Of a stretch of 64,000 bases of DNA, positions 34,783 through 55,222 are shown piece by piece. Positions within the stretch are counted from its first letter, which is position 1. Each line of letters opens with the position of its first letter. Made by a program: the position numbers and the translations under genes. The stretch covers positions 832,001-896,000 of the forward strand of contig CP060223.1 of NCBI GenBank assembly GCA_023898465.1, written 5' to 3'. This DNA comes from Candidatus Nomurabacteria bacterium. Its GTDB lineage: Bacteria > Patescibacteriota > Patescibacteriia > HK-STAS-PATE-3. The notes beneath the pieces are model-generated. The model saw only the letters and a program-made list of their open reading frames with translations, did no database searches and had not been told where the DNA came from.

Positions 34783-36885
34783 ATGATTATACGACGTGAA
34801 ACCTTAGTCACCCTGGCAGTCTCTTTTGGTATTATTATCCTCCTAAGTATTGGTGTGTACTACATTGGCACCTCGATCACACCTCAGAGCAGCAACACGA
34901 ATACGACAACGAATAGCAATCAGAATGTGGCTCCCGGACTGAAGCGTTTTGTGTCAGCTGAGGATTTCTCCCAATATCTGACAAGCGCAAGTCGACTCAA
35001 TACCCAGTATGGACTCCGTGATTCAGTTCTCAATGTAGTTACTCCTACTGCTTTTGAGCTAGAGTCAAGCGGTACTAAGAGCACAGCTGATCGCGTCTCA
35101 CAAACCAACGTGCAGGTAATGGGTATTGATGAGCCGGATATTGCCAAAACAGATGGGCAGCGTATCTACTACAGCCAAGATACCTACTACGGAGCATTGG
35201 AGTATCGAGGTATCAGCGATGAGTTATTAAAAACCTCACCTGCCTATACGCAGACTTCAAGCATTCTCAATGCCATACCAGCAAACGCACTCGCTGTCGC
35301 TGGCACATTACCCACTAGCGGACAGCTGCTCCTGACGGACAACGAAGTGCTTGTCCTGGGCTATGACGGCGTACATGCTTATCCGGCAAATACGAGCACG
35401 GTAAGTGAGGCGACTTGGGAGATGTCCTACGGAGATGCCACTTCATTAGTCACTGCGCGTTTACGAGAAGACACACTCTATCTTGTCACCAGCACCTCAC
35501 TGAATACCACCCAGCCATGCCCGATCACGCCACTACGAATTGCTGAAGGAGATGTGAGCATTGCCTGTACTGATATCTTCCACCCAGTGAATCCAACGCC
35601 AATCGATGTTGTCTACACTGTCTTTGCCATCGACCCAAGCAGTGGTGAAATAAAACAGGAATTAACCCTCAGTGGCCTCTCAGGACAATCTGTTGTCTAT
35701 GTTTCGCCCGAGACCCTCTACCTCACCTATACCTACACGAGTGATTGGGTCAATTCATTCCTAGATATTCTCATCACTGATACTGCTGATATTTTACCTA
35801 GTGAATTAATTGCAAAATTACAAAGACTCCGCACCTATGACTTGAGCGCTGAGGCACGCTTAACCGAGCTCGCCACCTTGCTTGGTGAATATGACGCAAG
35901 CATTTCAAATGAGGAGAAAGAAAACTTCCAAGAACAACTCACCACTGCAGTTGAACAAGGTGTGAAAGAGCGGCTGCGACAATGGGAACGAACTGGGATT
36001 ATTGCGGTTGATCTTGATCGACTGCAAGTGGCAGCGACCGGTGAAGTGCCTGGTCATCCCCTGAATCAATTTTCACTTGATGCTTATGCCGAGACCCTCC
36101 GTATTGCTACCTCCAGCGATGCTCGTTTTGTTGCCTCTTTCTCCGCCACCAGTCAAACAAATAATGACCTCTATATTCTCGACAAAGACTTGAAGCCCTT
36201 AGGCTCTATTCTCAATCTCGGGGAAGCAGGGGAAACTATCTATGGAGTACGCTTTGTCGAAGATACGGGCTACCTTGTTACCTTCCGTCAAACCGATCCC
36301 TTCTACGTCTTAGACCTGAGTGATCCGAAGAAGCCTATAGCTAGCGGCGAGTTAAAAATTCCTGGGTACTCTTCTTACCTGCATCCTATTGCGACGGATC
36401 GCATCCTCGGAGTAGGGCAGGATAATTTTCGTGTGAAGGTTTCTCTCTTTGATGTGAGCGATAAAAATGCGCCAAAGGAACTATCCACGCTTACATTAGA
36501 AAATGAGTACTGGTCTGACGTGCTTAATACTCATCACGCTTTTCTCCAAGATGCTGATCACTCCATCGTCTTTATCCCAGGATCGCAGGGAGGACATGTT
36601 ATCTCCTATACGAATGGAACTTTAAGCGAGGTGAAAAAGATTGAAGGCTTCGCTGTGCAGCGGGCACTCTACATTGATAATACGCTCTATGTCCTGGGCA
36701 GTAGTGAGGTGAGTGCAGTCGATGAAACGAGCTGGGAAACCATAAGCAGCGTAAGTCTCAACCAAAATAGGACAGGGGTTGAAGAGCCACAAAGCACGGA
36801 ACCAAGCGTTCCGATAGAGGACCTGCCAACTACTGAAGCAAATACTGGCGAAGGCACTAGTGCTACAGGCGATTCGACGGAATAG
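34783..36885 (+). CDS. Secreted/membrane-anchored beta-propeller domain protein (Beta_propel/COG4880-like)
   Basis: N-terminal TM anchor. C-terminal region with YVLDLSDPKKPIASGELKIPGYSSYLHPI...ILGVGQD typical of that family. S/T-rich tail. Confidence 0.5.
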   Translation: MIIRRETLVTLAVSFGIIILLSIGVYYIGTSITPQSSNTNTTTNSNQNVAPGLKRFVSAEDFSQYLTSASRLNTQYGLRDSVLNVVTPTAFELESSGTKSTADRVSQTNVQVMGIDEPDIAKTDGQRIYYSQDTYYGALEYRGISDELLKTSPAYTQTSSILNAIPANALAVAGTLPTSGQLLLTDNEVLVLGYDGVHAYPANTSTVSEATWEMSYGDATSLVTARLREDTLYLVTSTSLNTTQPCPITPLRIAEGDVSIACTDIFHPVNPTPIDVVYTVFAIDPSSGEIKQELTLSGLSGQSVVYVSPETLYLTYTYTSDWVNSFLDILITDTADILPSELIAKLQRLRTYDLSAEARLTELATLLGEYDASISNEEKENFQEQLTTAVEQGVKERLRQWERTGIIAVDLDRLQVAATGEVPGHPLNQFSLDAYAETLRIATSSDARFVASFSATSQTNNDLYILDKDLKPLGSILNLGEAGETIYGVRFVEDTGYLVTFRQTDPFYVLDLSDPKKPIASGELKIPGYSSYLHPIATDRILGVGQDNFRVKVSLFDVSDKNAPKELSTLTLENEYWSDVLNTHHAFLQDADHSIVFIPGSQGGHVISYTNGTLSEVKKIEGFAVQRALYIDNTLYVLGSSEVSAVDETSWETISSVSLNQNRTGVEEPQSTEPSVPIEDLPTTEANTGEGTSATGDSTE

Positions 36886-38188
36886 TCTTTGCGCTCACTG
36901 AAGCCTTGTCCTCAGTGCAGCATTTTTTGCTGCAACCGTTTTGACAACAGCAGCAATCACACTTCCGCCGCCAAAACATAAGCAGAAGTATAAGCAGTAG
37001 CACCAGCAGGCCAAGCACTAGGATGCCAATGGCAATCCAGGAATAAAGCCAGAAGATTCCCGCAAACCAGAAACCACTCTCGGGTGCATATTTCACAACC
37101 TCAACACTGACGGAACTGCTCCGAATATTACCCGCATTGTCGATCGCTAATATGGTTATGGTGTGTGTTCCGTAGCTTAATTCCGGTAAGAGAAAAGGCT
37201 CCGTTGCTCCAGGTAGAGCAATAATGCGCTGCACATCATCAATCAATACTTCGTAGCGATCTATGCCTGACAGGGCGTCCTCAGTGCTGAAATCGATATT
37301 GGGTCGTAGATTGGTTGTTGGTTGATCACCCTCAACTCGGACTGAAAAAGGAAGTGGTGGGGTAGTATCAATCCGAACACGGAAATGGGTAGCCTCACTC
37401 CAGCCCGCTTCGTTTTTCGCTTTAATGTGGAAGTACCAAATACCATCTTCCTTGTCCTGATATTGGACGCTTAGCTCAGTGCCCTGCCCATCATCATTAG
37501 GAATCGTACCGGCACTTTGATCTAGGAGGTAACTAAAATCCTGCGCCTCACCATCAACACTCCAGGAAAGTAGTGGGTCAGCGTTGGCGTACCAAGAGTC
37601 CTGATTCGTGTGCGTATCAGACCAGACTGTTGGAGCAGGTAGTGGCTGCGGCTGAGGTGGTTCTTCTTCCGGTTGTTCTGGCTCAGTGCTTGGCCGTGAT
37701 GGTGGAGGAGCACTAATAACAAGAATGGCCGTGCCAGTTGATCCGAGTGCATCTGTGCCATAACCGTCGTTAAGCAAAACCCGAGCTCCCTCCATACTAA
37801 TAACTGCGGTTCCAGGCTGCTTGGCTTTAAACACTGCACGGAGAATAGTACCAGCCGGACCTGCATAGCCAGGCGTAGGTAAGCCCCCGGTGAAATCAAT
37901 CGTTCCACTGCCATTGTCATACACCGGGCCAATTGGCCAAAGTGTAAATAAGGAACCTCGATCAACTGATTCGAGTGTAACGAGGTCTTTAGGGAAATCA
38001 ATTCTGGCCTCCGCTGAGTTAACCGCCTCACCGCCCGAATTTACAACCAAAGTAACAGTCACTCGTTGTCCAACTGTTACATTTGAGCGAGCCGGGGAAA
38101 AGAATAAGGTTGCTTTAGCAAAAACAAAACTCGGCACCAAAAGTGCAAGTAATGTGAGTCCACTAATGCGAGCTAATCTCTTTTGCAT
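36863..38188 (-). CDS. Cohesin-like domain surface protein with a conserved middle domain, C-terminal TM helix and Cys-rich tail
   Basis: Signal peptide. VGQRVTVTLVVNSGGEAVNSAEARIDFPKDLVTLESVD...GTIDFTGG...AVFKAKQPGTAVISM follows the cohesin beta-sandwich pattern. Paralog of the next gene. Confidence 0.5.
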   Translation of the reverse strand: MQKRLARISGLTLLALLVPSFVFAKATLFFSPARSNVTVGQRVTVTLVVNSGGEAVNSAEARIDFPKDLVTLESVDRGSLFTLWPIGPVYDNGSGTIDFTGGLPTPGYAGPAGTILRAVFKAKQPGTAVISMEGARVLLNDGYGTDALGSTGTAILVISAPPPSRPSTEPEQPEEEPPQPQPLPAPTVWSDTHTNQDSWYANADPLLSWSVDGEAQDFSYLLDQSAGTIPNDDGQGTELSVQYQDKEDGIWYFHIKAKNEAGWSEATHFRVRIDTTPPLPFSVRVEGDQPTTNLRPNIDFSTEDALSGIDRYEVLIDDVQRIIALPGATEPFLLPELSYGTHTITILAIDNAGNIRSSSVSVEVVKYAPESGFWFAGIFWLYSWIAIGILVLGLLVLLLILLLMFWRRKCDCCCCQNGCSKKCCTEDKASVSAKTIPSNRL

Positions 38189-39308
38189 GTTTTTGCTTTC
38201 TGCGTAAACGATAGTGCCATAACAACAGTATAGCAACCAAGAGCAAAAGTACCCAGAAGTACCATGGCAGGACTTGATACCAGGCCTGCGGTAATGCGGC
38301 GAGCTCAGCGGTCTGAATATTACCAGCTAAATCATAGGCCTCGACCCGCACGACATCACTACGCTCCTGATCAACCAGCAAATATGGACTCCGCACATTG
38401 ATAGAACGCTGCCCGCCCTCTATCACGTCATAGCGATCTATACCTGAGGTCCGATCAATACTCTGGAATGAAATAACTGCTTTGCCAGAAAACTCATCTG
38501 CTTCCTTTGTGGAAATTATTTCAAAAGGTTCAGGTGGGGTAGCATCAATCTGCACCCGGTAACGAGCCACCTGACGCCAATCATCACCAGAAGTTCTTTC
38601 AAGGAGTGTAAAATAATAAATACCATCCTCTTGATTATCATACTCAACAAAACCACTCGCATCATCTGGTAATTCATCAGGCTGCTTTTCCGCATTTTGG
38701 GAAAAACTATAACTATATAACGCATTTGCTCGCGGCTCCCAAGTAAGCACCACATCACGTTCAGTGTACCAGGTATCTTGATCTGGATGCGTTGGCGAAT
38801 AAACAGTCACTTGATAGGCTGGCGACTGAATAACATTGATATCGAGTGCCTGCGTTGTTAAAGGAAGACGACTTCCCTCACCATTATGCATATACACTGC
38901 TGCTAGCTCCTTCGGTACAGTAAATCTAGCCTCACCGACTTTTATTGCTCGCAAAGTCATCTGCAATACTGTGGCATGAAAAGCATAGGTGCCGCCTGGA
39001 ATACCGCCAACAAAATGCACAGTGTGGGTTGCTGGCTGGTGAAGAGGAGGCTCAGGCCAAAGCTGTAAAAATGATTGCCCAATGCTAATATCCTCTAAGA
39101 CAAAAAGATCCCCGGGATAATGCACATCCGCTTCGATCGCGTTCATGGGTAAATGGTCACTATCAACCACTACGCTTACCAAAACGGTATCGCCTAAGCT
39201 AATGTTCTCCTGTGGTGCTTGAAGAGAAACTTGAGCAGCCTGAACTGCCTGGGCAAAGAAAATGCCGATACCAAAAAGGCTAAAAAATAGAAGTGAACGC
39301 TTCATCAT
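38163..39308 (-). CDS. Cohesin-like domain surface protein (paralog) with a C-terminal TM anchor
   Basis: Same architecture. Shares the DTWY...EYDNQEDGIYYF...DTTPP.PF...SGIDRY block with the previous gene. Confidence 0.5.
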   Translation of the reverse strand: MMKRSLLFFSLFGIGIFFAQAVQAAQVSLQAPQENISLGDTVLVSVVVDSDHLPMNAIEADVHYPGDLFVLEDISIGQSFLQLWPEPPLHQPATHTVHFVGGIPGGTYAFHATVLQMTLRAIKVGEARFTVPKELAAVYMHNGEGSRLPLTTQALDINVIQSPAYQVTVYSPTHPDQDTWYTERDVVLTWEPRANALYSYSFSQNAEKQPDELPDDASGFVEYDNQEDGIYYFTLLERTSGDDWRQVARYRVQIDATPPEPFEIISTKEADEFSGKAVISFQSIDRTSGIDRYDVIEGGQRSINVRSPYLLVDQERSDVVRVEAYDLAGNIQTAELAALPQAWYQVLPWYFWVLLLLVAILLLWHYRLRRKQKHAKEISSH

Positions 39309-39309
39309 A

Positions 39310-40185
39310 TTAGCCAGTCCAATGGAACATCATAATGCTAAAATCAACCACATCAACTAAGCCACTCTTATCAATATCAGCCCTAGTGTTGGCCGGGTGT
39401 GTATCAAGCCAGTAATAAAGCAAAATACTGAAGTCGACTAAATCAACTGAGCCGTCACAGTTTAAATCAGCAATGTTTGCGTAGCTGCAAGGATCTGGTT
39501 CAGTTGCCTCACTTACTACAAAGGTGAGTGTAGAGCTGTATTCAGAAATGCTGCTATCTGTTGCAACTGCACGAGCTCGAATACTATAGGTTCCAATACT
39601 GCTCAGCTCTTGCCCGCCCTGTAACGTATAAGACCATCGTCCGTCGGTATGAGCCGTTGCAGAAAAACTTTGATCACCATCTGGACCCGAGAGATAAAGT
39701 GTAAGCTGACTATTTGGCGCGGTATAACCTTGAATTTGGACACCTTCATCTAATCGAATACTGCTTGCACTGCCTTGTATGGTGGGGCCGAGAAAAATAC
39801 CACTCGCGCTTACCGTGGTGCCCTCTGCTATAGTAACCGACAAGGATAAACTAGGACCAAGCACGCCGTCTATATCAGTTCCCTGAATAGTGAAAGTGTA
39901 GGTGCCGGCTAAAATTTCGCTCTGAGTAGCAAAAGCAGCTGTACTAGTTGCAGTCGTACTCAACCAGGTACTTCCATTTTTCAATATTTGAATACTTGCT
40001 GAGGGGTAGGCGAGGCCCTGAAACTGTACAATGGTTTTTGGTTCTTCAGGCGGAGGCGGCGCTTCAACCACCGCACTCACCGAGAGTGTGTGCTGATCTG
40101 TCACTGTAGCGGCAAAGGCGCTAAGCAAAAAAAGCGGCAGAATGCTTAGCATGCTGACGACGGCAACGATGCTCCGTGTCTTCAC
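39310..40185 (-). CDS. Secreted protein with C-terminal double dockerin repeat
   Basis: Signal peptide. C-terminus DLNCDGSVDLVDFSILLYYW...DIDKSGLVDVVDFSIMMFHW gives two Ca-binding dockerin repeats. Confidence 0.65.
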   Translation of the reverse strand: MKTRSIVAVVSMLSILPLFLLSAFAATVTDQHTLSVSAVVEAPPPPEEPKTIVQFQGLAYPSASIQILKNGSTWLSTTATSTAAFATQSEILAGTYTFTIQGTDIDGVLGPSLSLSVTIAEGTTVSASGIFLGPTIQGSASSIRLDEGVQIQGYTAPNSQLTLYLSGPDGDQSFSATAHTDGRWSYTLQGGQELSSIGTYSIRARAVATDSSISEYSSTLTFVVSEATEPDPCSYANIADLNCDGSVDLVDFSILLYYWLDTHPANTRADIDKSGLVDVVDFSIMMFHWTG

Positions 40186-40202
40186 AGGTACTCCTATCTT
40201 AC

Positions 40203-41237
40203 TTATTGCTGGTTGGCGCGAGTAAGGATCCAGTGGTTATAGCGCTTGATGCCAAAGATGACTGCAAGCACTACTACAACCAAGATGAGGAACATGAGCG
40301 TTAAGACGCGCCATGGCCACACCCAGAAGGTTAAGGTTGCGCTATCTTTTACCAAATCACCAGTACCAGCTGTCAGACTCACGCTGGCTTGATAGCGACC
40401 AAGCGCAAAGTTGTTCCATTCGTTACGGAATTCGGCCCAAAAGTTACCCCAGATATTACCTGGCGTTTCTTCTACTGTTGATTTTTCCCAGGTCGTTTCA
40501 TAGCGACGGATCGAGTCTGGTAAGGTTGCTCCGCCATTCTGATTCATGACAAGCTCAGCGCTAGTGCTGCCAAATAGATTTTTCACTACAACGCTTCCGG
40601 TTGGACGAAGGTGAATATTTCCCTCGTTTTGGAAACGAGTTGCAAAAGTCGCTGGTAAACGATTTAGACTCGAACCTTCATCTACAGTAAATTCAACGAT
40701 GCTGCCCTTTTCCTCTACGTCACCAAAAACACGGAGTAAGAAAAGCGAGCCAAGTTTGGTGCCAAGTGACACGCTGCCGGGCTCGGAATTTTCTGGTGGC
40801 TCAGTTGAGAAGAAGACAGTAGCATAATGACCACCTGGCTCGGCATCATTTGGTGGGGTGATGGTAATCGGTACCACGCGACGTTCGCCAGCTTCTAGGT
40901 GGACTGAACCATTTGGCAAAGAAAACCAAGAGGCAATATCAGGTACCTCACCGCTGAAATCATAGGTTGGAGTACCATCTTCACCAGAAGCAGTAAAGGT
41001 AGTTACCTCAGGGTAGAGGTCTACTGCGCTCTGTGTTTCATTAAATAGCTTAATTTGCGTATCAAACGGCACACCTGGATCAACCGAGGCCTCAAAAGAA
41101 GGAGGAATAAGGGTTAAGGCTTGCGCATTTGGAGTTTGCACAAAGGCAAAGCTAAAAGCAGCAACGAGCACAAATAGGCCCAGGATCGCTGTTTTTTGCA
41201 AAATGTTACTTTGTTTTCCCCCTTGATTCATCTTCAA
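40203..41237 (-). CDS. DUF916-like (CscA-like) cell-surface protein: signal peptide, beta-rich ectodomain, C-terminal TM anchor
   Basis: LTLIPPSFEASVDPGVPFDTQIKLFNETQSAVDLYPEV pattern and C-terminal hydrophobic helix plus basic tail. Confidence 0.4.
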   Translation of the reverse strand: MKMNQGGKQSNILQKTAILGLFVLVAAFSFAFVQTPNAQALTLIPPSFEASVDPGVPFDTQIKLFNETQSAVDLYPEVTTFTASGEDGTPTYDFSGEVPDIASWFSLPNGSVHLEAGERRVVPITITPPNDAEPGGHYATVFFSTEPPENSEPGSVSLGTKLGSLFLLRVFGDVEEKGSIVEFTVDEGSSLNRLPATFATRFQNEGNIHLRPTGSVVVKNLFGSTSAELVMNQNGGATLPDSIRRYETTWEKSTVEETPGNIWGNFWAEFRNEWNNFALGRYQASVSLTAGTGDLVKDSATLTFWVWPWRVLTLMFLILVVVVLAVIFGIKRYNHWILTRANQQ

Positions 41238-41272
41238 TAAAAATTCAACAATACCTGTGGATTACTTTACCA

Positions 41273-42343
41273 CTAAAATGTTGCAGTGGCAATATAGGTA
41301 ATGTCAGTGGTATAAAGTCCAGCTTCTGTATTGGCCGCAATGTTTGCAATATAGAAAGCGCTAATGTTTTCTGTTGCCGTTGGGCCAGTCTCCGAGGCAA
41401 AAGTTGTGGTCGTACTTGCCACAAAGGCCCAGTCTCGGTTACCCGGAGTTGCATTATGATCATATCCTGATGCGATGGTGGCATCACCGTCAGTTGAGTA
41501 ACTTACTCCAAACTCTTCAGTTCCAGGGGTGCCGTCAGCATCATTTGTTATTGAAGCTACATTGATGGTATCACCGCCGCTTGTTAGGGTTGCGCCGTTA
41601 TAGGTAACGATGTAGCCATCAGTAGCATTTGTACCAACGCTAATGGTATGAGCAGCAGCTGAATCGCTTGCTGAACCGTTTGTATCACCTGTTGCCCAGC
41701 GTGCATTTGAGGCACTCAAGGTACCGAAGCCAATAGTCGTGTCGGAGAGAGAAAAAGTAATAGATGCATCAACTGTGGCAGTAACATTCACACTGTCATC
41801 AGTAACGAAATCAAGTGCAAATTTACCAGAATCACCAAAGTTACCAGCTAATTCAATCACATGTGTGCTCGTATCATTTGGGCTAGTAAGCTGAGCATTT
41901 CCGCTCGCAGCGTTATTACCGATCTGCACCTGCACACAGCGATCTGCGGTAATTTCTCCGCTCGTAGCATCTGTCGGAGGAGTCAAGGTAAGCACGCTCG
42001 AGGCAAATGCAGCACCCCAAGTGCCCGCAGATGCAGTAGCCGCTAGGGTTTTATCTGAGAAAGTGCCATCACAAGCGTTATCATCATCAACCGCCAAGTC
42101 GATATCCGTGAAATCAACCGAACCTACCGTGAAATCAGTAAAGTCGATAGTAATGGTATCGGTTGAAGCGTCAACTCCGGTAGGAGTCACAAAAAGAATG
42201 GTGTGATCAGCTCCAACATTTTGCGTTAACGTATCTAAAGTATCAGAAACACTGGTTAAACCAGCAGCTTTCACCTCATACACTGGCAGTGAAAAGGCGG
42301 AGATAATGACGAGGATGAGAGCGAAAATTCCGTACTTTTGCAT
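41273..42343 (-). CDS. Secreted surface protein with a divergent WxL-like C-terminal domain (paralog 1)
   Basis: Signal peptide. C-terminal ~170 aa ...SITFSLSDTTIGFGTLS...AHTISVGTNATDGYIVTYNGATLTSG...YTTDITYIATATF follows the WxL-domain consensus with Y replacing W in both WxL motifs. Confidence 0.5.
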   Translation of the reverse strand: MQKYGIFALILVIISAFSLPVYEVKAAGLTSVSDTLDTLTQNVGADHTILFVTPTGVDASTDTITIDFTDFTVGSVDFTDIDLAVDDDNACDGTFSDKTLAATASAGTWGAAFASSVLTLTPPTDATSGEITADRCVQVQIGNNAASGNAQLTSPNDTSTHVIELAGNFGDSGKFALDFVTDDSVNVTATVDASITFSLSDTTIGFGTLSASNARWATGDTNGSASDSAAAHTISVGTNATDGYIVTYNGATLTSGGDTINVASITNDADGTPGTEEFGVSYSTDGDATIASGYDHNATPGNRDWAFVASTTTTFASETGPTATENISAFYIANIAANTEAGLYTTDITYIATATF

Positions 42344-42353
42344 AGTCTATTGA

Positions 42354-43424
42354 TTAAAAAGTCGCGGTGGCAATATATGTTATGTCGGTCGTGTACAAAC
42401 CCGCTTCAGTAATCGCGGCAATATTTGCGAGATATCGTACACCAATAGTTTCGGTGTTGGTCGGCACAGTTTCAGAAATAATTGTTGTCGTGGTGCTAGC
42501 TACAAAGGTCCAATCAGGATCACCGTGAGCATAGCCCGTGGCAATGGTTGCATCTCCGTCGGTAGTAATGCTCAATCCAAACTCTTCTGAGCCTGGTGTA
42601 CCATTCGCGTCATTATTAATTGAAGCCACGCTTATGGTATCAGAACCACTCGTTAACGTCGCACCATTATAGGTAATTGCCCAGCCATCAGTCGCGTTGG
42701 TGCTAACTGCTAGCGTATGAGCATCGGCTGAATCAGATGAAGAACCATTAGTATCGCCGGTCGCATACGTTGCTGCGCTTGAACTCAAAGTACCAAATCC
42801 TACCGTGGTGTCAGAAATAGCAAAGGTAATGGAAGGATCAACAGTCGCGGTTACGTTAACACTGTCATCGCCAACAAAATCAAGTGCAAACTTACCAGAA
42901 TCACCAAAGTTACCAGCGATTTCTACTACATGAGTACTGGTATCGTTTGGGTTATTGATCTGGTTAGAGCCACCTGAGGCGTTGCTACCAATCTGAATCT
43001 GCACACAACGTCCAGCAGTAATTTCTCCTGAGCTTGCATCAGTAGGAGGGGTCAGCGTTAACACATCAGAGGCAATCGCTGCGCCCCAAGTACCAGCCGC
43101 CGCTGAAGCCGCTAATGTCTTATCACTCCAAGATCCATCACAAGCAGCATCATCATCAACAGCAAGGTCAATATCACCAAAGGCAACGCTCGTGGTAGTA
43201 AAGTCTGTGAAGTCGATGGTAATGGTATCAGTTGAAGCGTCGACACCAGTAGGAGTTACAAAGTAAATCTCATGGTTTGCGTCAACAGCTTGAGTTAAAG
43301 TATTCAGCGTGTCAGAAATACTCGTCAAATTGGCAGCAAAAACCGGTCGAGCTGGGAAGCTCAACACCGTTACAAAAACTGCTATGAGAATGGCTATTTG
43401 TATTTTTTGTAGCTTTCCGTACAT
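42354..43424 (-). CDS. Secreted surface protein with a divergent WxL-like C-terminal domain (paralog 2)
   Basis: About 75% identical to paralog 1. Same C-terminal ending YTTDITYIATATF. Confidence 0.5.
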   Translation of the reverse strand: MYGKLQKIQIAILIAVFVTVLSFPARPVFAANLTSISDTLNTLTQAVDANHEIYFVTPTGVDASTDTITIDFTDFTTTSVAFGDIDLAVDDDAACDGSWSDKTLAASAAAGTWGAAIASDVLTLTPPTDASSGEITAGRCVQIQIGSNASGGSNQINNPNDTSTHVVEIAGNFGDSGKFALDFVGDDSVNVTATVDPSITFAISDTTVGFGTLSSSAATYATGDTNGSSSDSADAHTLAVSTNATDGWAITYNGATLTSGSDTISVASINNDANGTPGSEEFGLSITTDGDATIATGYAHGDPDWTFVASTTTTIISETVPTNTETIGVRYLANIAAITEAGLYTTDITYIATATF

Positions 43425-43505
43425 TCTGAAAGTAATATAGAGGCTAAAACTCTACAAAACAAGCTTTCTAGGTATTAGAATAGCATAAAATTGAGTTCTC
43501 GTCAA

Positions 43506-44609
43506 TTAGAAAACCGCAGTGGCAATATAAGTAATGTCGGTTTGATAAAGACCCGCTTCAGTTATAGATGCGATATTCGCAATATAATGCACAAAAATCG
43601 ATTCTGCATTAGTTGGCCCAGTTTCGCTTACAAATTCAGTTACCGTGCTCGCAACAAAATTCCAATCTGATAAACTCGGCAAAGTGCTGTTCCATTGATA
43701 GCCGGATGTGATAACTGCGTCGTCCGACTTATCTGCCGACAAAGCGAACTGCTCTGTTCCTGGTGTACCATTGCCATCATTACTAATAGTTGCAGGACTA
43801 ATGGTATCTGATCCACTTGTTAAAGTTGCTCCATAATATGTGATGGCATATCCGCTGGTAGCATTTGTGCTTACTGTTAAATTATGTGCCGGTGAACTAT
43901 TCGTCCCTGTACCGTTGCCATCACTAGTAGCATAACGAGCCGCGCTTGAACTCAAGGTGCCAAATCCTACCGTGGTGTCAGAAATAGCAAAGGTAATGGA
44001 AGGATCAACCGTTGCAGTTACGTTGACGCTATCGTCAGCAACAAAATCAAGTGCAAATTTGCCGAAGTCATCAATTGCTCCCAAATTTCCAAAAATATCA
44101 ACTACATGGGTATTGGTATCATTCGGGTTAACTAATTGAGCATTCCCTCCTGATGCATTTGTACCAATCTGAATTTGCACACATCGTCCTGCTGGAATTT
44201 CTCCACTTGTGGCATCTGTTGGCGCATCAAATATTATATATTCAGAGGAAAGCTGGTTCACCGAAACTCCCCATACACCTGCAGCATCTGAACTCGCTAG
44301 TGTTTTTTCTGTCCAAGACCCATCACATCCCCCATCATCATCAACGGCTAAATCAATGTCGGTATAATCAAGAGTTGAAAAACCAAAATTAGCGAAATCA
44401 AACCGATAATAGTCTGCGTCAGCATCTACACCAACTGAAGTAATAAAATAAATCTCATGATTTGCAGCAGTATTTTGAGTAAGCGAGCTTAACGTATCAG
44501 AAATACTCGTCAAATTGGCAGCAAAAACCGGTCGAGCTGGGAAACTCAACACCGTTACAAAAACTGCTATGAGAATGGCTATTTGTATTTTTTGTAGCTT
44601 TCCGTACAT
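43506..44609 (-). CDS. Secreted surface protein with a divergent WxL-like C-terminal domain (paralog 3); start set at MYGKL by homology
   Basis: First ~40 codons are DNA-identical to paralog 2. Ends YQTDITYIATAVF. Confidence 0.5.
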   Translation of the reverse strand: MYGKLQKIQIAILIAVFVTVLSFPARPVFAANLTSISDTLSSLTQNTAANHEIYFITSVGVDADADYYRFDFANFGFSTLDYTDIDLAVDDDGGCDGSWTEKTLASSDAAGVWGVSVNQLSSEYIIFDAPTDATSGEIPAGRCVQIQIGTNASGGNAQLVNPNDTNTHVVDIFGNLGAIDDFGKFALDFVADDSVNVTATVDPSITFAISDTTVGFGTLSSSAARYATSDGNGTGTNSSPAHNLTVSTNATSGYAITYYGATLTSGSDTISPATISNDGNGTPGTEQFALSADKSDDAVITSGYQWNSTLPSLSDWNFVASTVTEFVSETGPTNAESIFVHYIANIASITEAGLYQTDITYIATAVF

Positions 44610-44668
44610 TCTAGAAATCGAAAACATCCTAATGAATAAAACACTATAGAACTTAAGACGTCAACTGA

Positions 44669-47600
44669 CTAGAATTTGCCAGTTACCACGTAAGTGATAT
44701 CGGTTGAGTAACTTCCAGCTGGGGTCGTACCAGCCGCATTAGCAATGTAATATATGCTGAAATTCTCAGTGGCCGTGCTACCAGCTTCTGAGGCAATGGT
44801 TGTGGTGGTATTTGCTACAAAGGAATAATCAGCTGGCGAAGTAGCATCATAACCAGAGGCGATGGTTGCGTCACCGTCTGTGGTACACGCAATGCCAAAC
44901 TGCTCACTCCCAGGTGCGCCATCATCATCATTGGAAATAGTGGCCGCATTAATATCATCAGACCCACTGGTAAGTAATGGTCCATAATAGGTAAGCGCAT
45001 ATCCATCATCCGCTGAGGTACGGACTGAAATAGTATGCGCCGAGGTTTTTGTACCCGTGCCTGATGCATCGCCGGTCGCGTATCTGGCGCCAGAGGTACT
45101 TAGAGGACCAAAGCCAACGCTGGTGTCAGAAATACTGAATTGCACTGCGTCAAAATCCCAGTTAGTTGTGTTTTGGCAATCAATATTTGAAACATGACTT
45201 GAATCAATCAAGTCACCGCCAGAAGCATCAGACCGACCCACATTTACAAACTTCACTGTTTGCGCGCCACTCACGTCAAGCAACCAGGTACCTGAACCCA
45301 AGCTAGAATTACGGAAAATTATTTCACTGCCATATGTCTGCCCATCCCAGTTAATATCATTCATGGTATAGGTTGAGCCAGAGTTATACTCTACTTTTAC
45401 ATCACTCGTAGTAATAGTGTATTCACCTGCTGTAGTTGCTGCCGCCGCAAAATCAACTCCAGGGGTAAAGGAAGCTGAACAACCAGAATACGACCCACTA
45501 CTGTTTTCAATTGCTAAGTCATAAAATGACGAAGCGCTTGTCATTGTTCCGGATAACGTTTGTAGCGAGGAACCATCTAAAACAACTCGGCTATTACCAT
45601 GAGTAAAGGTGTCACTATTTGCCCAATCACCGGCCAAAGTCAGCTCAGGTGAAAAGGCTGTAGAATTTACTTTTTGCTTTGTGCCACCTTCGTTTACACG
45701 TAAGGCAACCTGAGTTGGACTTGATCCTCCGCAAGAAGGAATAGCCAACCATATGGCAAACTCTACATAAAGCACTTGATTAGTAAGCGTTTCTTCTGGG
45801 ATGCCAGTAATAAAAATGGCATAGTCATTCGTTCCTGTGCTTATATTCACATTTTTCCATCCTGAGATTGCAACCGGATTTGCTAAGTCAGCATCAGCCT
45901 TCCATAATCTTGCGTTCACTTGACGTCGTCCGTATGAGCACGATCCGGCAGTATAGACCGTTGTGATATCTACCGACCAGGTACCAGCAGCGAAGGTTCC
46001 AGTAATTGGCTGACCATTGTTAAGCATCCATCCGGTATTAGTGATAGCACTCGGAATGCTTCCATCCCATGTGGTACTTGTATTCCCTGGCACAAAAGTA
46101 CAATATCCACTTTGACCTGTGCCGGTATCGTCGCATTTCGTCGTATCATTCGATGAGCCACTCGGGTCAACCGGCTTCATGCGCCAGCTCGAACCATAAC
46201 CACTCGTGTCACTGGTCAAATACCACGCTGTAGGACCACTCAGATCAAAGGTTCCGCCAGTAATGTTTACATCTCCGTTTATATCAAGAGGATAAATGGT
46301 TTTATAGGTAGCGCTCCCCCCAGCATCGTTAAGCTCAAGGTTATTTAAATTAGTTGCCGCTAGAGATGACGCTTCACTAGTGTCGATATATTGCGTGCCG
46401 CTTGTAGCATTCAATACTAAGTTACCAGTCGACTCAATAATAGTATCATTGTTGGTAAAGTTGCCAGCAACATACAAAGTATTTGCTCCATTAAAATCAA
46501 AGGTGCCGCCATAAATAGTGAGGTATCCATTGACATCCATGTCAGTCAGGAGATTCCACTCAGCCCCACCGCCGCTATCATTAAACTCAACATTATTAAA
46601 GAAGTCACTCCCTGTTCCATCTGCATCTATATCATAGGTACCGCTGCCCGCCTGGAAAAGCACATAGCCCGATGTATGAGAGAATGTACCATCGTTGTTC
46701 CAACCTCCACCTAATATCACAAATGATGACCCCACACTCAGGGTACTATTATCAATATGTACATCAGCTGCCTGAGTGGTAATGTTGCCGGCTGGCGCAT
46801 AGGTATCACCATTCCAAATATGCAGCTCAAAACCCGAATCAAAGGTTGCCGCTGATCCTGAAACACTATATTTAATATCATCGTCACCACTATCGCCGGT
46901 ATTTAGATTGGCGTTACTGATTGATCCAGTATCAGCTCGAACAATGACTGTATTCTGATACAGATCTATATCTGTCTTTGCCACACCATCAGACACAAGC
47001 ACAGTTGTTGCCTCCTCTGTTTCGTCATCGAGATATACAGTGACAATGTCGGTTGAGTTTGCTGGCACGCTTGTAATAGACCAAGCGCCGCTGCTGTCGG
47101 TAATTTCATCAGTGTAACTACCACTACCATTCACTTTCAGTGTGACCGTTTTGTTTACACCGCTCCCATCAAGTGGTGTAGTCCCTTCATTAGTATAGGC
47201 AATACCCGAAAGGTTAATGCCAGCCGCAAAAAGCCAGTTGGTGTTGTTTAGACAGTCAGTGTTTGTACCATCAGAAGCATCAATCTGATCACCACTAGAA
47301 GCGTCAGATCGGCCAACATTCACATAGGAAACTGCAGTTTGAGTACCCGAAACATCCAGCAGCCAAGTACCTGAACTTAAATTAGAGTTTCGGAAGATAA
47401 TATCATTACCAGTAGAAGCGCTCCAGTTAATATTTGTAATTGTATAAGTGGATCCGGAATTATATTCCACCTTCACGTTATTAGTCGTGATGGTGTAGTT
47501 ATTGCTTACTGTTGCGCTGTCAGCAAAATCAATACCGGGAGTGAAAGAGGTTGAACAACCTGAGTAGCTACCTGAACTGTTGGTAATGCTAAGATTATAG

Positions 47601-50600
47601 AAAGATTCTCCATCAGAGGTTATTGTTTGCGTCGAGGACCCATCAAGAATAACAGTTGACTGATCCGCGGTGAAAGTAGCGCTCCCACCAAAAATCATGC
47701 TCCCAGCTACATTAATTGTTGTTTCATCAGTCTCAACATCATCAGTGGCATCAAGTGTCCCATTAATAGTGAAAGTACTGTTAATATCCATTTCATATCC
47801 ATTAGTGTATAGGGTATCACCGGCGGCGATCGTTAAACTCAAGTAAGTCATATCAGTACCTAAGTTCAAACTGTCAGGAGAGGTACCAACCTGGACATTA
47901 CCTTGATTCTGCTTTGTCGCATTATTATCGTAAGCAAAAACATCTGCATCAAAAATCATTGTTCCACTACCAGTCGGACCGGTAAAAAGACCTCCGCTCG
48001 CCAAAGTGAAATCGCCAGCGATATTCATATTGACATTAGCATCGGCAGTGAAGCTCCCTGCGCTAACATCAAAAGTGCCATTCACATCCATGGCATCGGT
48101 ATTACTAATACTGCCACCAGTCACATCAAAATTTTGCAGGGCGGTAGTCGCCGATGTGAGCGTCTTTGACGTGCCATCCATCTCAAGGATGTTACCTGTA
48201 GAAATAGTAGTGGTCCCATCACTTAAATCAATATTTCCCGAGACGGACCAAGTGCCTGCTCCAGTAACTATCTGACCGTTACTCGAACCAAGCTTCACAT
48301 AAGAGACATCACCTGTAATTGAAACATCAGGGTCATTGTTATCACCGGTTAATGCAACAACTTGATTGTCTTCAACGGTTACTATTAAGGATCCGCTAAT
48401 AGTATGCGTACCAGCGCCCATATCGACCAACACACTAGTGAAGGAGGTGCCATTTGTATACACTTCTACATCATTACCGTAGGTACGAGCCGGCATGGTC
48501 ATATTACCTCCAGCACCAGCATCAAAACGAACAACTGAGGAGAGGGTGCCGCCTGTTGGAATTGTTGTCGTTGTTGCTACGGTTAAGCGTCCCGCTCCAG
48601 TAATTGAACCTGATAAAGTAAAACTTGACCCGGACCAGGTAACGGTACGACCTGATGAAATGCTTAAGGTGTCACTACTAGAAACAACTAAACTATTCGT
48701 AATCTCCACATCGCTTGTCTGCACGGTGATCGTGCCTGTTGAGCTAGGATCAACTGTAAAATTATACAGACTGTTTCCACCACCGCTGAACGTTTCTGCT
48801 GTTCCAGTCATTTTTAAATCCGCTGTAGAAACGACACTATAGGTGCCGTCCTGAAAATCAATACTACCCGCCACACTCCATGCGCCAGTGCCTGGCTCAA
48901 GGTCCTCGGTGCCTGTACCAACACCTGTGAAATCAATATCTCCTCCAATAGTAACAGTTGGGTTATTTGTTGAACCGTAAAAGTGAATATCACTACCATT
49001 TGCCGCGTTTAGAGTGAAATTATCTGATACAATAATACTGCCGGATCCACCAGTCACACTCGTCGTGCCGCCAAAAGGAGCGTTATTGTAAAGTTCCACA
49101 TAGCCTCCGTAGGTCCTCGCTGACATTGTCTGGTTATTACTCGTGGCATCAAAGCGTAGATTTGCTGAAAAGGTTCCAGTCGTGGGGAAGGCGGTAGTAG
49201 ATGTATAGATAAGTAAGCCAGCTCCTGAAATAATGCCTGATAAGGTTAAGGTGGATCCGCTATGTGTTAAGGTACGGCCGGTATCAATAACGAGTTGATC
49301 ATTTGATCCGACATCTAAAGTGCCACTCACTGTCAGGTCCGAAGTTTGCAAAGTGGTGGCTCCGCCAAATAGTGCATCAATGGTGAGATTATAAAGAGTG
49401 TTTCCGCCTCCAACTATAGTCACAGCGGTGCCGCTCATAACAACGGTTGAAGTTCCAGCTGTTACTGTTCCACCAGCCATATTAAGGTTGCCAGTTATGT
49501 TGTGACTTTCACTAGAAAGAGTAACAGTGCCTGAGAGCGTGAGATTTTTATATATGTTTCCTGCAATTGTTAGCGTCCCACTCCCATCCATCACTAGTGT
49601 ATTTGTACCTTCAATGGTATAGGTGCCGTTCGTAAAGTCAGCGCTACCTGAAACAGTCCAGGTCCCGGCCCCTGAGGTAATTGTTTCAGTTCCAGCCCCT
49701 GCTCCAGTGATAAAGTCTAGATCGCCTCCGATATTTACATCAGGATCATTGGTAGCCGCATCAACCGTAACAGAACAGTTACTGTATCCTTCGATTTCAA
49801 GATTTCCATCAATCGTAATGGTCTGACTACCCGCAGATCCAAAATTAACTTCTCGAGAACTCAGACCGCAGTCAGCCTGAATATAGATACTACCCCCAAA
49901 GGTTCTGCCTGGAATAGTATGGTCAGCGGTTGTTGGGTAAAAGAAAACATTCGCGTCCATGGTCCCGGTGGACGGAAAAGTTGCTGGGGTATAGTAATAG
50001 ACATACGCATTACCGCTGATGGTTCCGTTCAACACGAGTGAGGTGCCGGTATCATTATATAAATCAAAGTAAGACCCTGACTGAAGTGCTGCTTCATCAT
50101 TCGCGGCAACGGTTAAGGTATTATCAACAGCCACGCCATCATTAATAGTGATCGTCCCTGCCGAGCTGGGATCAATCTCTAAATCATAGAATGTGGCGCC
50201 ATTTGCCCAAATATTTCCACTAGTGCCAGTCATGACAAAGGTATGCCCAGTGGCAATATTTGTTGCCCCAGGGTCACGGAGATCAAGATTACCGCCGATC
50301 GACCAGGTACCACTACCGGTCGTAATATGTTCAAAAGAGCCTGGTCCATCTTCACGATCTAAATCGCCACCAATAACCAGATCGGGATTCCAAACCGAAC
50401 CATCTATAGTTGCCGATGAACTCTGCGCATAAATTAAAAAGCTTCCGTTAATAGTAATGGTTTGTGAGGCAGCACTCCCTAATATCAACTTATAAGAAGA
50501 AAGACCTCCTTGATAGTATTCCACATCACCCTGGTAGGTACGTGCAGTCATGGTTCGATCAGCAGATCCAGAATAGTACTGCAGTAACGCGCTAATAACT

Positions 50601-53600
50601 CCCGTTGTAGGGAAGAGTTCGCTTGTCTTATAAATAACTTTTCCAGATCCTGAAATTGTACCGTCGAGAGAGATCGCCGTTCCTGTTGTCCTAATTAAAT
50701 TAACAGTCCGGCCACTATCAATTACTAATTCACCATTACTCGAGACAGTTAATACCTCTGAGATTGAAAAATCAGAAGTCTGCATAGTAATTGTTCCTGC
50801 AGAGCTTGGACTAATACTAAGATTACGTAGGGTGCGATTATCTGCCACAATGGTATTACTCGTACCCGTCATAACAAAGAGATTTCCAGATGATGAGCTT
50901 AAATTACCATTGGAGAAATCAATATCCCCTCCAACAGTCCAAGTGCCACTGCCTGTTAAAATATATTCCTGCCCGGACCCAACCCCAATATACAAAAGAT
51001 CACCGCCTATGTTTACGGTAGGATTATAGGTGGTGCCATAAATATATTGGTAATTGGTACCTGCAGCATTTATCCATAAATCACCGTCGATGGTTACTGT
51101 TTGACCTGACGAACTGCCCATATACATCACACGAGCAGTGCTTCCACTGTTGTACGCTTCCACACTACCTCCATAGGTACGACCACTTAAACGAGGATTT
51201 CCGTTAGTTGTATCCATGCGAAGATTCACGCTGATAGTGCCTGTAGTAGGAAAGTTAGTTGTCGACGCATAGCTCACCCATCCACTACCACTTAAAATCC
51301 CGTTGAGCGTAAGCACGGTGCCTGTTGTCTTTGAGAGCGTTATAAATACAGCGCTATCTAAACTAAATGTGTCGCTGGTTTGGACGGTCAAAGCGTTGCT
51401 AATGGTGAAGTCATTAGTGTTCGCAGTGATAGTTCCAGTTGAGCTTGGATTAATAACCACATTATAGTGTTGCTGATCGGTATTGAAGGTATTGCTGGTG
51501 CCGGTCATTGTGAGCGTACTAGTATTACTCGTCAGCCCTCCACTGCTTGTCATGGTGTAATTTCCTCCTACGGAAATACTGGCCGAACCAGCATATACAA
51601 CCGCGCCGCTTGAAGTATGAGAGAAATTTCCACTGATTGTTACAGGTGTTTTAGTAATCGTGAGACTGCCGGACATGCTCGTCACTGAAATGCTTGCCAC
51701 GGTTGCAACCGCACTAGTATCCCAGTCCGAGTTATCATTACTGGTACCGTCAAAAATTATATCGTCACTGGTGCCTGGACATGTATCGTTATTCCAGTTT
51801 GCACATTCAGACCAGCTGGCAGTTGTTCCATCACCATCCCATGTCTTGGTTGCGTCAGCCGCGATCTGCCAGAGTCGAGCTTCAGTAAACGCAATGCTCT
51901 CATCTCTACGAGTAAACTGCAGCGGTCCCAACTGATAGAAGAATGGTGAAACATTTGGTGCATCAAAAGTGTAAGCAAGGGTATATTCCTCTCCTGCTAG
52001 CCAATCCACTTCCCATTGAATAATGCGATGTCCATCTTGCGGATCACTTACCGTGCCATCGCCACTGATAGCACTTATCGCAAAGGTATCCGGAACCTCT
52101 TCGGTAACTATTCCCTGAAAACCCTCGCTAGTTTGAACGGTAAACTGTACCGGGTATTGAGCGGGAGGATAAATGCGTGTAGGAAACTCTGTGCGCTGTA
52201 CTGAAAAAGGCACTACATCCGCCAGAGAAAAATGATCTTGAATTTGTCGCGTGCCATCCTTGGTAGTGGCTTGTACATCAACTTGATATTCACCTTCTTG
52301 AGTCCCAGTGTAGAAGAATGAATAATCCGGCTCGTTTGTCACGCTTTTATCTACACAATCAGGGTTCTTTTCAATCGTCGCGTCGCTGGTATGAAATACT
52401 GAGGCACTGCCTGATGGATCAGTTACGGTGACATCAATATTTGCATCGCAAACTGTTCGCCCTAAATCATCCACTACTGCTAAGTGCACTTTTTGTGCCG
52501 TGTTTGTCGGGGCTAAAGACTGTCGTACATTTACTGCTACTACGCCCCAATAAAAAGTTTGTGTAAGCACTTTATCTTCCCCTAAGGCAGTCGTCGCAAT
52601 CTCAACTTCATACTTACCTGGTCGCCCAAAATCAGCTTCACTGAAACGAAGCTCTAGCTCCCCCTCAGCAGTGAGTACTTCACTCGGATCAGATTGAATT
52701 TCTTCACCAACAGGCGTACGCAACTTCACCTCTTTAACTAAAACAGTTGAGACGGGTGATTGCTTTGTTGTCTCAACCGGGTGCATCGCTTTCAGTTTCA
52801 TCACCGGCTCTTCATCAGCTTGAATAACCTGTGTTTCAGTTTCCAAACTTAGATCATCGCTAGAAGGAAGTGGGATAAAGATGGGTGTTTCATTTGTCCT
52901 TTCATCTACGTGTAGCTGCCACGCGTGCTGCTCAGACCAGCTACTTCCATAGGTCTGATTATTTCGAAACTCGGCAAAGCCATCGGCACGAAGCGGACCA
53001 AGAACAAAAGATTGAGGTGTCTGCTCCGGGGCTTTCACGACATAGGAGAGGCTAGCTGATTCACCTTTTTTCCAAACTACAGACCACTGCAACTCATCGC
53101 CAATTTGCTTTCCCCCTTGCCCAACACTACTTATTTTTAAATTGGCAGGTATGGGCTCTACAACGGTGCCAATATAGTCGTCTCCAACCACAAATTCTAA
53201 AAAGACATCGTAACTCTGTTTAGGCACCAAGCGGGTTGGAGCGATTCGCGTCAGCTGCAAATTTGTCTGCTCAACAACCTCTAAAGTGCTTTGCGCTCGA
53301 TATGTGCCAGCGTATGAGGATGCATCTAAGCGTATTCGATACTCGCCAACTTCATCGAGAGGAAAGGAGGCCAAATAATCGGCCACGCTACTCACTACAT
53401 CAGGACTGCAGTCCTCTGAGCGCTGGATACCTTCAGTCAATGCATAGTCATTGTGCACACCTGATGGTGAAATCGTCTCAATATGCACATCCGCATTGCA
53501 AATTGTCCTACCATTATTATCAAGAAATCCTAGGGAAAGTTGCGCAGTATCATTTAATTGATAGACTGATCGAGCGTCGTTCATAATAACCACTCCCCAG

Positions 53601-54697: not shown

Positions 54698-54825
54698 AAA
54701 AAGTTGTTACATTATACCATTTTTTGCCTGTAACGTCGATTAAAGAAAAAGGGAATATAGCACCGTACTATCACAAGACAGCCATGCGGTCATGGAAGAG
54801 ATAATTTAAACAAAGTTCCTTTGTG

Positions 54826-55218: not shown

Positions 55219-55222
55219 AGCT

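Follow-up and report, generated by a model that had tools for sequence, protein, structure and literature searches.

A predicted cohesin–dockerin joint as the proposed membrane anchor of a Pam-type pilus in Patescibacteria

Two Pam filaments of Ca. Mycosynbacter amalyticus (PamA and PamB) have been solved by cryo-electron microscopy and shown to form by a donor-strand mechanism, in which each pilin consists of an N-terminal domain, a linker strand, and a truncated immunoglobulin (Ig)-like C-terminal domain that takes up the linker strand of the next subunit (bioRxiv 10.64898/2026.03.03.709456). The Pam operon also encodes chaperones with C-terminal transmembrane helices, as well as PamR, which carries an extra N-terminal strand predicted to insert into the last pilin, two fibronectin type III (FnIII) domains similar to RbmA, and a transmembrane helix; PamR was proposed to act as both filament terminator and membrane anchor (bioRxiv 10.64898/2026.03.03.709456). 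No dedicated trans-envelope assembly machinery was found in that study, and the preprint makes no mention of cohesin, dockerin or WxL (bioRxiv 10.64898/2026.03.03.709456). The locus described here lies in a 64,000-nucleotide stretch of a Candidatus Nomurabacteria bacterium genome (assembly GCA_023898465.1, contig CP060223.1, positions 832,001 to 896,000 of the forward strand; hereafter the window, numbered from its first letter), where genes for a secreted dockerin protein (doc291) and two membrane-bound cohesin proteins (coh381 and coh441) adjoin a set of pilus genes. As judged from sequence and predicted structure, doc291 probably terminates the pilus, and its dockerin is predicted to plug into the membrane cohesins, which would make the pair a non-covalent filament anchor. 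The domain identities, the conservation of the operon, a strand motif shared with the pilins, chimeric orthologues, and a natural swap of the anchor form the basis of this model.

When compared with PamR (WP_260763282.1) by its description, doc291 resembles it in having an N-terminal strand, an RbmA-like tandem Ig/FnIII body, and the corresponding position in a Pam-type operon. PamR has its own C-terminal transmembrane helix, however, whereas doc291 ends in a dockerin and the helix is found on the separate cohesin proteins; because of the dockerin end and the lack of a transmembrane helix, doc291 is regarded as a variant and not as a PamR-type member. Non-cellulosomal cohesin–dockerin pairs from Archaeoglobus fulgidus (PDB ID: 2xdh) and Clostridium perfringens GH84C (PDB ID: 2w1n) share with the locus the cohesin fold, the two-repeat dockerin, and the absence of cellulose degradation. 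They differ from it in that here the cohesin is carried by a single-pass membrane protein and the dockerin by a proposed pilus subunit, within a fixed operon confined to Patescibacteria-type records.

In the anchoring scaffoldins of cellulosomes, cohesins fixed on the surface by S-layer homology domains or sortase receive a dockerin-bearing scaffoldin. The likeness is that of a surface-fixed cohesin holding a large extracellular assembly via one dockerin, whereas the anchor here is a transmembrane helix, a donor-strand pilus bearing a giant adhesin takes the place of enzymes as the cargo, and each protein has one cohesin. PapH of the chaperone-usher P pili is the last subunit to enter; it donates a strand, cannot accept one, and ends growth at the base. 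PapH has the pilin fold and sits in the outer-membrane usher, while doc291 is devoid of an acceptor domain and is proposed to be held by a cohesin–dockerin joint in a cell that has no outer membrane. The WxL/WxLIP clusters of Firmicutes (DUF916-DUF3324) constitute a further parallel: the chaperone-like protein of the window (chap344) appears to be WxLIP-related, with two Ig-like domains and a transmembrane helix at its C-terminus, and small and large proteins with a common C-terminal domain occur in both. WxLIP is predicted to complete the WxL sandwich by an inserted strand (PMC10599100). Unlike those clusters, the window and related loci encode pilins that lack a WxL domain by profile. To our knowledge, no cohesin–dockerin module occurs in WxL clusters; no systematic search for one was made.

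A literature search combining dockerin or cohesin with CPR (Candidate Phyla Radiation), Patescibacteria, Parcubacteria or Saccharibacteria returned no paper on the module. The cohesin and dockerin annotations and the Pam pilus are already known; no paper was found that links the Pam pilus with cohesin and dockerin, and the use of a dockerin terminator and membrane cohesins as a proposed pilus anchor is not described in the literature searched.

Three consecutive open reading frames (ORFs) were confirmed at 36863-40185, with these features:

36863..38188, minus strand: coh441 (cohesin-2); Pfam and OmpL47-type domain matches, AlphaFold2 model, Foldseek, 86 homologues.
36920..36964, minus strand: poly-Cys cytoplasmic tail CDCCCCQNGCSKKCC of coh441 (residues 409-423); read directly.
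38163..39308, minus strand: coh381 (cohesin-1); BLASTP, Pfam matches of alignment members, hhalign.
39310..40185, minus strand: doc291, proposed pilus terminator and adaptor; Pfam, AlphaFold2 model, Foldseek, homologues.
39313..39477, minus strand: dockerin module of doc291; PF00404 match, invariant Asp residues, modelled helices.
40066..40086, minus strand: donor-strand-like motif LSVSAVV of doc291 (residues 34-40); orthologue alignment.

Two of these window proteins are 100% identical to public records (P0001 and P0087). In the 5' to 3' direction, the genes follow the order giant tip adhesin (a proposed role), three pilins, membrane-anchored chaperone-like protein, doc291, cohesin-1, and cohesin-2. 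As all of them are encoded on the minus strand, doc291, coh381 and coh441 lie 3' (downstream) of the pilin genes, and the first-pass annotation, made from the letters alone, was mistaken in placing the module upstream of the neighboring locus; the module constitutes the 3' end of what looks like one operon shared with the pilin genes.

The coh441 ORF was listed with a TTG start at 38236 (457 residues), but its start is likely the ATG at 38188, giving 441 residues in agreement with the public annotation (P0001, 100% identity). The protein consists of a signal peptide (1-24), a cohesin domain (26-159), a Pro-rich linker of 27 residues (160-186), two Ig-like domains (187-273 and 284-364), a hydrophobic transmembrane segment (about 373-405) within a predicted helix (372-415), and a Cys-rich cytoplasmic tail. 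Residues 52-149 match the Pfam Cohesin family (PF00963) with 25.6 bits (gathering score 24.1), and further matches were obtained to Big_13 and an OmpL47-type domain. In the AlphaFold2 model, with a mean predicted local distance difference test score (pLDDT) of 87.7, residues 26-159 form a beta-sandwich mostly above 90, followed by the Pro-rich linker at low confidence, two more beta domains, the long helix (372-415), and a tail predicted as disordered. When the PDB was searched by sequence alone, the individual proteins and the coh441 profile gave marginal matches (E = 0.034 for cohesin 5g5d, E = 0.09-0.4 for dockerins); the fold search settled the question instead. Foldseek aligned the model with many solved cohesins (e.g., PDB IDs: 2xdh, 1g1k, 2vn5, and 4uyq) at target TM-scores of 0.70-0.76 and root mean square deviations of 2.5-3.5 Å over about 145 columns. 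The best match overall was 2w1n, a cohesin-FnIII double module, and the archaeal non-cellulosomal cohesin 2xdh ranked high (TM-score 0.76); the other two beta domains match FnIII/Ig tandems. All 86 homologues of coh441 come from CPR-type records.

The paralog coh381 has a similar layout, with a signal peptide, a cohesin domain (about 25-160), two Ig-like domains (about 165-340), a transmembrane helix (about 346-366), and a basic tail. Alone it gives no match to Pfam Cohesin, while seven of the sequences in its 14-member alignment (A4; coh381 and 13 orthologues) do match, the best at E = 9.8e-8. Relatedness to coh441, the protein for which the cohesin fold was modelled, is evident from BLASTP (31% identity over 373 columns, E = 6e-38) and from hhalign of the two groups (probability 100%, E = 4.5e-80). 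Each protein has one cohesin domain, and in both the C-terminal hydrophobic helix is followed by basic residues. The first-pass annotation had called two paralogous membrane-anchored proteins with N-terminal cohesin-like beta-sandwiches, and the Pfam match, the fold, the sequence identity, and the hydrophobic helices bear it out; a cohesin profile match or fold, on which that call was to stand or fall, is present in both forms in coh441 (25.6 bits; TM-scores 0.70-0.76).

The region between the cohesin and the membrane had been read as one shared domain without an assigned function. Its characteristic strings, given there as a merged consensus of both paralogs, are present: DSWY, QYQDKEDGIWYF and IDTTPPLPF in coh441, and DTWY, EYDNQEDGIYYF and IDATPPEPF in coh381, with SGIDRY common to both. 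Instead of a single domain, however, the region resolves into two, identified by profile as Big_13 and OmpL47-type and by structure as an FnIII tandem; these are two Ig/FnIII-like beta-sandwiches, which most likely act as a stalk. The poly-Cys tail of one paralog was also read correctly: CDCCCCQNGCSKKCC holds 8 Cys, and the tail after the hydrophobic helix reads RRKCDCCCCQNGCSKKCC. The tail is unique to coh441 among the 86 homologues and approximately 200 cohesins of the related loci, the nearest relatives (in loci L006, L008, and L011) having just CC or CCC at the membrane boundary, and is a lineage-specific feature by sequence comparison, not a family trait. A third class of cohesin proteins in the related loci (e.g., L058:13039-14772 and L062:12952-14637) combines a cohesin and the middle domains with two Ig domains of the doc291 body type and is devoid of a dockerin.

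The secreted protein doc291 (291 residues) starts with a signal peptide (1-26), an N-terminal extension containing the donor-strand motif, and a Pro-rich linker, continues with two Ig-like domains (52-131 and 142-225), and ends in the dockerin (237-291). Residues 239-285 match Pfam Dockerin_1 (PF00404) with 25.4 bits (gathering score 22.9); Big_13 is matched as well. A dockerin was defined by two repeats of about 22 residues with Asp or Asn at loop positions 1, 3, 5, 9, and 12, followed by a helix. In doc291, the repeats are DLNCDGSVDLVDFSILLYYW and DIDKSGLVDVVDFSIMMFHW, each of them an F-hand in which a calcium loop precedes a DFSI[LM][LM][FY]xW helix, and 26 homologues show little or no variation at the calcium-loop positions. 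Loop 1 reads D240-L-N-C-D-G-S-V-D-L-V-D251 and loop 2 reads D270-I-D-K-S-G-L-V-D-V-V-D281; D240, D244, D251, D270, and D281 are invariant across the 26 sequences, and position 5 of loop 2 is Ser in doc291 and Asp in the family consensus. This agrees with the first-pass reading of a secreted protein ending in a double dockerin. Taken together, the identity of the cohesins and of the dockerin is hardly in doubt.

In the AlphaFold2 model of doc291 (mean pLDDT 89), the dockerin helices span residues 249-257 and 279-290, and the N-terminal extension (about 32-50) is unstructured in the monomer. The Foldseek matches are tandem Ig/FnIII proteins, including Vibrio cholerae RbmA (4be6_A; rank 5, E = 4e-7). 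Profile searches found no enzyme domain in doc291 or its neighbors and no pilin acceptor domain in any dockerin protein among the ORFs of the examined loci. No transmembrane helix is present in doc291, whose C-terminus is the dockerin, and by the family profile the protein is the sole dockerin ORF in the window. The protein collection contains 534 homologues, and most of the 120 listed carry a precomputed PF00404 match. Across the family, a near-invariant pair of Cys residues (233 and 243 in doc291; PDPC...DLNCDG) lies before and inside the first calcium loop and may form a disulfide.

The gene order is widely conserved. A scan of a one-genome-per-species collection yielded at least 587 stretches with a doc291 relative, of which 80 loci were taken; with five loci reached through cohesin homologues and the window itself, they constitute 86 sources, whose ORFs were searched with profiles of the window proteins (loci are labeled L, followed by local coordinates). 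An independent set comprised metagenome loci sampled through the pilin (alignment A6). The order giant, pilin(s), chaperone(s), one dockerin protein, cohesin-1, and cohesin-2 (sometimes with more cohesins) recurs in about 110 loci of Patescibacteria. Where at least 3 kilobases (kb) of upstream sequence were available, 52 of 59 loci have the chaperone gene as the immediate upstream neighbor of the dockerin gene, and where at least 1.5 kb were available downstream, a cohesin follows directly in 66 of 77; the median intergenic gaps are 11.5 base pairs (chaperone-dockerin) and 3 base pairs (dockerin-cohesin). Cohesins are present in 82 of the 86 sources. The 87 dockerin ORFs found there are single per locus except in L049, where the gene is apparently split in two. 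The first cohesin is closer to coh381 than to coh441 in 65 of 66 cases, and the second is a coh441 orthologue in all 41. Among the pilin-sampled metagenome loci extending at least 4.5 kb past the last pilin gene (n=32), a chaperone is found in 32, a dockerin protein in 31, and a cohesin in 31.

A further link to the pilus is the strand motif. The pilin linker follows the pattern V-x-V-[ST]-A-T-V, and the core motif [VIL]x[VIL][ST]A[TVIS][VI] was counted over all ORFs of the loci. It occurs in 56 of 84 pilins, at the linker right before the acceptor domain, and in 45 of 88 dockerin proteins, 40 of which carry it right after the signal peptide; the corresponding counts are 4/203 for cohesins, 3/105 for chaperones, and 14/3012 for other ORFs. 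LSVSAVV of doc291 aligns with VTVTATV or VSVSATV of its orthologues, A38 and V40 being invariant.

Chimeric orthologues join the two protein types in one chain. In a 458-residue dockerin protein of L036, residues 20-203 are 53% identical to the N-terminal domain of the neighboring pilin (E = 8e-57); next come ITVTATV and an Ig-Ig-dockerin part (40% identity to doc291, E = 1e-54), which stands where a pilin would have its C-terminal domain. A pilin N-terminal domain is present in 12 of 110 cluster representatives that have a C-terminal dockerin of the doc291 subtype. In the examples L036:9473-10849, L035:299-1678, L047:9452-10786, and L077:9524-10843, it is 40-55% identical to the same domain of true pilins.

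A natural exchange affects the other end of the molecule. In L120, L140, and L163 (L120:12019-12918, L140:2401-3324, and L163:7057-8085), a homologue of the doc291 body directly follows the chaperone (hidden Markov model E = 4e-23, 4.9e-35, and 7e-10, respectively; for L140 also by BLASTP, E = 1e-11) and has a C-terminal transmembrane helix where doc291 has its dockerin. Their N-terminal donor strands read ITVEISATV, SIIVSAIV, and NVSINAIV. No cohesin was found downstream of these genes within about 8 kb (L120) or about 2 kb (L140 and L163), and L120 is the one pilin-sampled locus with neither a dockerin nor a cohesin. The three proteins have the PamR architecture, i.e., the direct-anchor form. 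On this evidence, a role of doc291 as a pilus subunit can be assigned with good confidence.

The genes upstream of doc291 in the window are the following:

40203..41237, minus strand: chap344, membrane-anchored chaperone-like protein in the PamC/PamD position, apparently WxLIP-related; position, profile matches.
41273..44627, minus strand: three Pam-type pilins (356, 356, and 373 residues); NF058581, linker motif.
44669..54697, minus strand: giant protein of 3342 residues, proposed tip adhesin; C-terminal identity to the pilin domain, NF058581.

The three pilins match NCBIfam NF058581 (CPR_Pam_pilin_C) with 67-72 bits (cutoff 55) and are composed of an N-terminal domain, the linker (donor) strand SVNVTATVD, and a truncated Ig-like C-terminal acceptor domain. 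Over its last 160 residues, the giant protein shares 59% identity with the C-terminal domain of the pilins, beginning exactly past the linker strand; this segment reaches 76.9 bits with NF058581 (cutoff 55), and no donor strand precedes it. The giant protein has a groove but no strand to give, as would be expected of a tip subunit. In 22 related loci, the first gene of the operon encodes a giant protein of this kind, ending in the pilin domain. Short pilins of approximately 210 residues also occur (L062:8044-8676, L085:8043-8678, and L083:1358-1996), in which the donor strand comes right after the signal peptide and only the C-terminal domain follows; this layout is Pap-like, and the L062 protein, the single one tested, falls below the NCBIfam Pam pilin model.

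The first-pass annotation had described these neighbors as WxL-like, which has a basis in the chaperone-like family and fails for the pilins. The protein chap344 carries a signal peptide as well as a transmembrane helix at its C-terminus, and occupies the position expected of the chaperone. Its family appears related to WxLIP, with a match to EfmWxLIP1 in the PDB at E of about 1e-3 and to the WxLIP domain PF06030 in 8 of 14 members (best E = 1.2e-5), and chap344 itself has no PF06030 match; a weak PapD_N match appears in one of the 14 members (E = 0.064). A WxL identity of the pilins was rejected, since neither the window pilins nor the 18 pilins of alignment A5 match PF13731 at E <= 0.1, and the PDB sequence search returned no WxL protein for them; they are of the Pam type. 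The Pam-type pili and the WxL/Csc clusters of Firmicutes may share ancestry. A promoter and terminator scan of 36000-55500 gave no excess of sites over shuffled sequence. Its best promoter-like candidate (54739-54711, minus strand) directly precedes the gene for the giant protein, and a hairpin resembling a terminator (36813-36797, minus strand) directly follows coh441; each is weak evidence, and together they are compatible with a single operon.

We infer the order of assembly, the insertion of the doc291 strand, and the binding of dockerin to cohesin as follows. The giant protein, having an acceptor domain only, would begin the filament at the tip. Pilins would then add at the base, where the linker strand of each enters the open Ig-like C-terminal domain of the subunit before it with the help of the membrane-anchored chaperone, as homology to PamA and PamB suggests. 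As the last subunit, judged by the strand motif, the domain architecture, and the chimeric orthologues, doc291 would fill the groove of the final pilin with its LSVSAVV strand, and growth would stop there because the protein has no acceptor domain. Finally, the calcium-binding dockerin is predicted to enter the cohesin of coh381 and/or coh441, presented above the single transmembrane helix on a stalk of two Ig domains (and, in coh441, the Pro-rich linker). The chain of dockerin, cohesin and transmembrane helix would thereby replace the C-terminal helix of PamR, split over two non-covalently joined polypeptides. The multi-component, non-covalent surface structure suggested by the first-pass annotation is in this way refined to a Pam-type pilus operon, with the pairing itself predicted from sequence.

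A bolder and rather unlikely extension is that the predicted joint is the usual anchor of Pam-type pili across Patescibacteria, with the PamR-like transmembrane anchor being a rarer, fused form. In its extreme version, one dockerin might clamp both of the differing membrane cohesins, which are always encoded together, at once. With both helices reading DFSI[LM][LM][FY]xW, the internally symmetric dockerin would then give a heterotrimer with two transmembrane helices, and such a clamp might act as a coupling that bears force or can be released, for a pilus with a 3342-residue adhesin at its tip.

Several observations weigh against doc291 being the pilus terminator and anchor adaptor. Every operon encodes 2-5 different cohesins for one dockerin. 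The TM-scores of the RbmA match are low (0.22-0.27), as is typical for any FnIII tandem, and the homology of the window pilins to PamA and PamB comes from the NCBIfam domain model, not from structure. A 14-residue matrix of the pilin linker, which includes pilin-specific flanks, misses the N-terminal strand of doc291 (score 1.85) and ranks just 32 of 87 dockerin proteins higher than the 99th percentile of the remaining ORFs, an enrichment that is real and yet weaker than that of the core; since the wider matrix misses it, the likeness of the doc291 strand is drawn from the seven-residue core and the orthologue alignment. In the anchor swap, the absence of cohesins is firm in L120 only, as L140 and L163 have about 2 kb of downstream sequence. 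Approximately 5-6 loci contain a dockerin protein and cohesins with no pilin or chaperone within 3-10 kb. Such stand-alone modules (L001:7787-9133, L041:3228-4520, L059:9431-10705, and L084:9407-10708) contain dockerin proteins with a different N-terminal domain, some of them with an FnIII-like domain and a poly-Gly run. As they occur, the cohesin–dockerin module is not tied to pili alone, and the joint is therefore seen as a more general anchoring device, here used for the pilus.

The same stand-alone modules would suit an alternative in which the membrane cohesins are a general surface-display scaffold, with sockets for any protein bearing this dockerin subtype and doc291 as one cargo among others; the proximity to pilus genes would then reflect co-regulation of surface proteins and no structural role in the pilus. 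The subtype is indeed found at the C-terminus of proteins ranging from about 280 to 1349 residues. This alternative is unlikely, given that all but one of the 86 sources have a single dockerin ORF, always with cohesins directly after it, that the window-type protein contains no cargo domain besides the donor strand and two Ig domains, and that both the chimeras with pilin N-terminal domains and the exchange of dockerin for transmembrane helix link the doc291 type to the pilus. It also overlaps with the pilus-anchor reading, as a general anchoring device may here serve the pilus.

The surplus of cohesins, 2-5 distinct ones conserved per operon and thus beyond the need of a simple tether, could alternatively point to an assembly platform, in which the cohesin proteins act like an usher, hold the growing base, and catalyze donor-strand exchange, while the dockerin recruits or times the terminator. 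The third cohesin class, which shares both Ig domains with the dockerin protein, and the lack of a dedicated trans-envelope machinery in the Pam report are in line with such a role. The operons with a transmembrane terminator, however, contain pilins and a chaperone and show no cohesins in the available sequence, and assembly hence appears independent of cohesins. Besides, cohesins are not known to have a catalytic or strand-exchange role, which also makes the platform improbable.

It is more doubtful still that the two modules do not pair; in that case, the dockerin would be a calcium-binding module in contact with the wall, an S-layer or glycans of the host, and the cohesin-like domains would have another ligand. 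A precedent could be seen in a cultivated Saccharibacterium with an essential dockerin-domain protein, for which host-glycan binding was speculated by the authors (PMC10633639). Adjacency of the modules in 66/77 loci, presence of cohesins in 82/86 sources, and the failure to find them where a transmembrane helix replaces the dockerin all speak for pairing, as does the near-invariance of both dockerin helices across the family, which would be expected if they had a conserved protein partner. The protein of the Saccharibacterium, moreover, is a stand-alone gene product of 927 residues, different from the doc291 module. This protein (SEML1_0315 of Southlakia epibionticum; PMC10633639) was considered as an orthologue and rejected: it has no cohesin neighbors, and its gene is flanked by those for a hydrolase and a tRNA.

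A cellulosome-like, polysaccharide-degrading enzyme complex, suggested by nothing but domain names (annotations such as dockerin type I or cohesin domain-containing), is extremely improbable in view of the single cohesin per protein, the one dockerin per locus, the absence of an enzyme domain from the dockerin protein and its neighbors, and the pilus-operon context; membership was rejected for want of a multi-cohesin scaffoldin and with the lone dockerin ORF of the window having no enzyme domain.

Beyond the operon, the window contains a protein with a PF09826 beta-propeller (34783-36885), whose gene is convergent and overlaps the 3' end of coh441 by 23 nucleotides with its own 3' end. A stand-alone PPDK_N (pyruvate phosphate dikinase N-terminal) domain protein is encoded at 33780-34745, and an acidic ORF of 718 residues with no Pfam match at 31548-33704, where the local GC (guanine plus cytosine) content is 0.536 against about 0.46.

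The ultrasmall CPR bacteria account for much of the diversity of bacteria and live on the surface of host cells, to which they attach. Contact with the host may well be made through their pili and giant adhesins, which are prime candidates for it, and how a filament is fixed to a cell without an outer membrane, an usher or a sortase signal is an open point in the sole experimental study. The locus provides a concrete, if predicted, answer for a very widespread type of operon (at least 587 stretches; 31 of 32 pilin-sampled loci of sufficient length), and the relatives in which one transmembrane helix replaces the dockerin and cohesins represent a natural control. Small conserved cohesin–dockerin pairs of this kind could also serve as orthogonal protein connectors. 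If true, the proposed anchor would give the cohesin–dockerin interaction a new job, that of a load-bearing joint at the base of a pilus.

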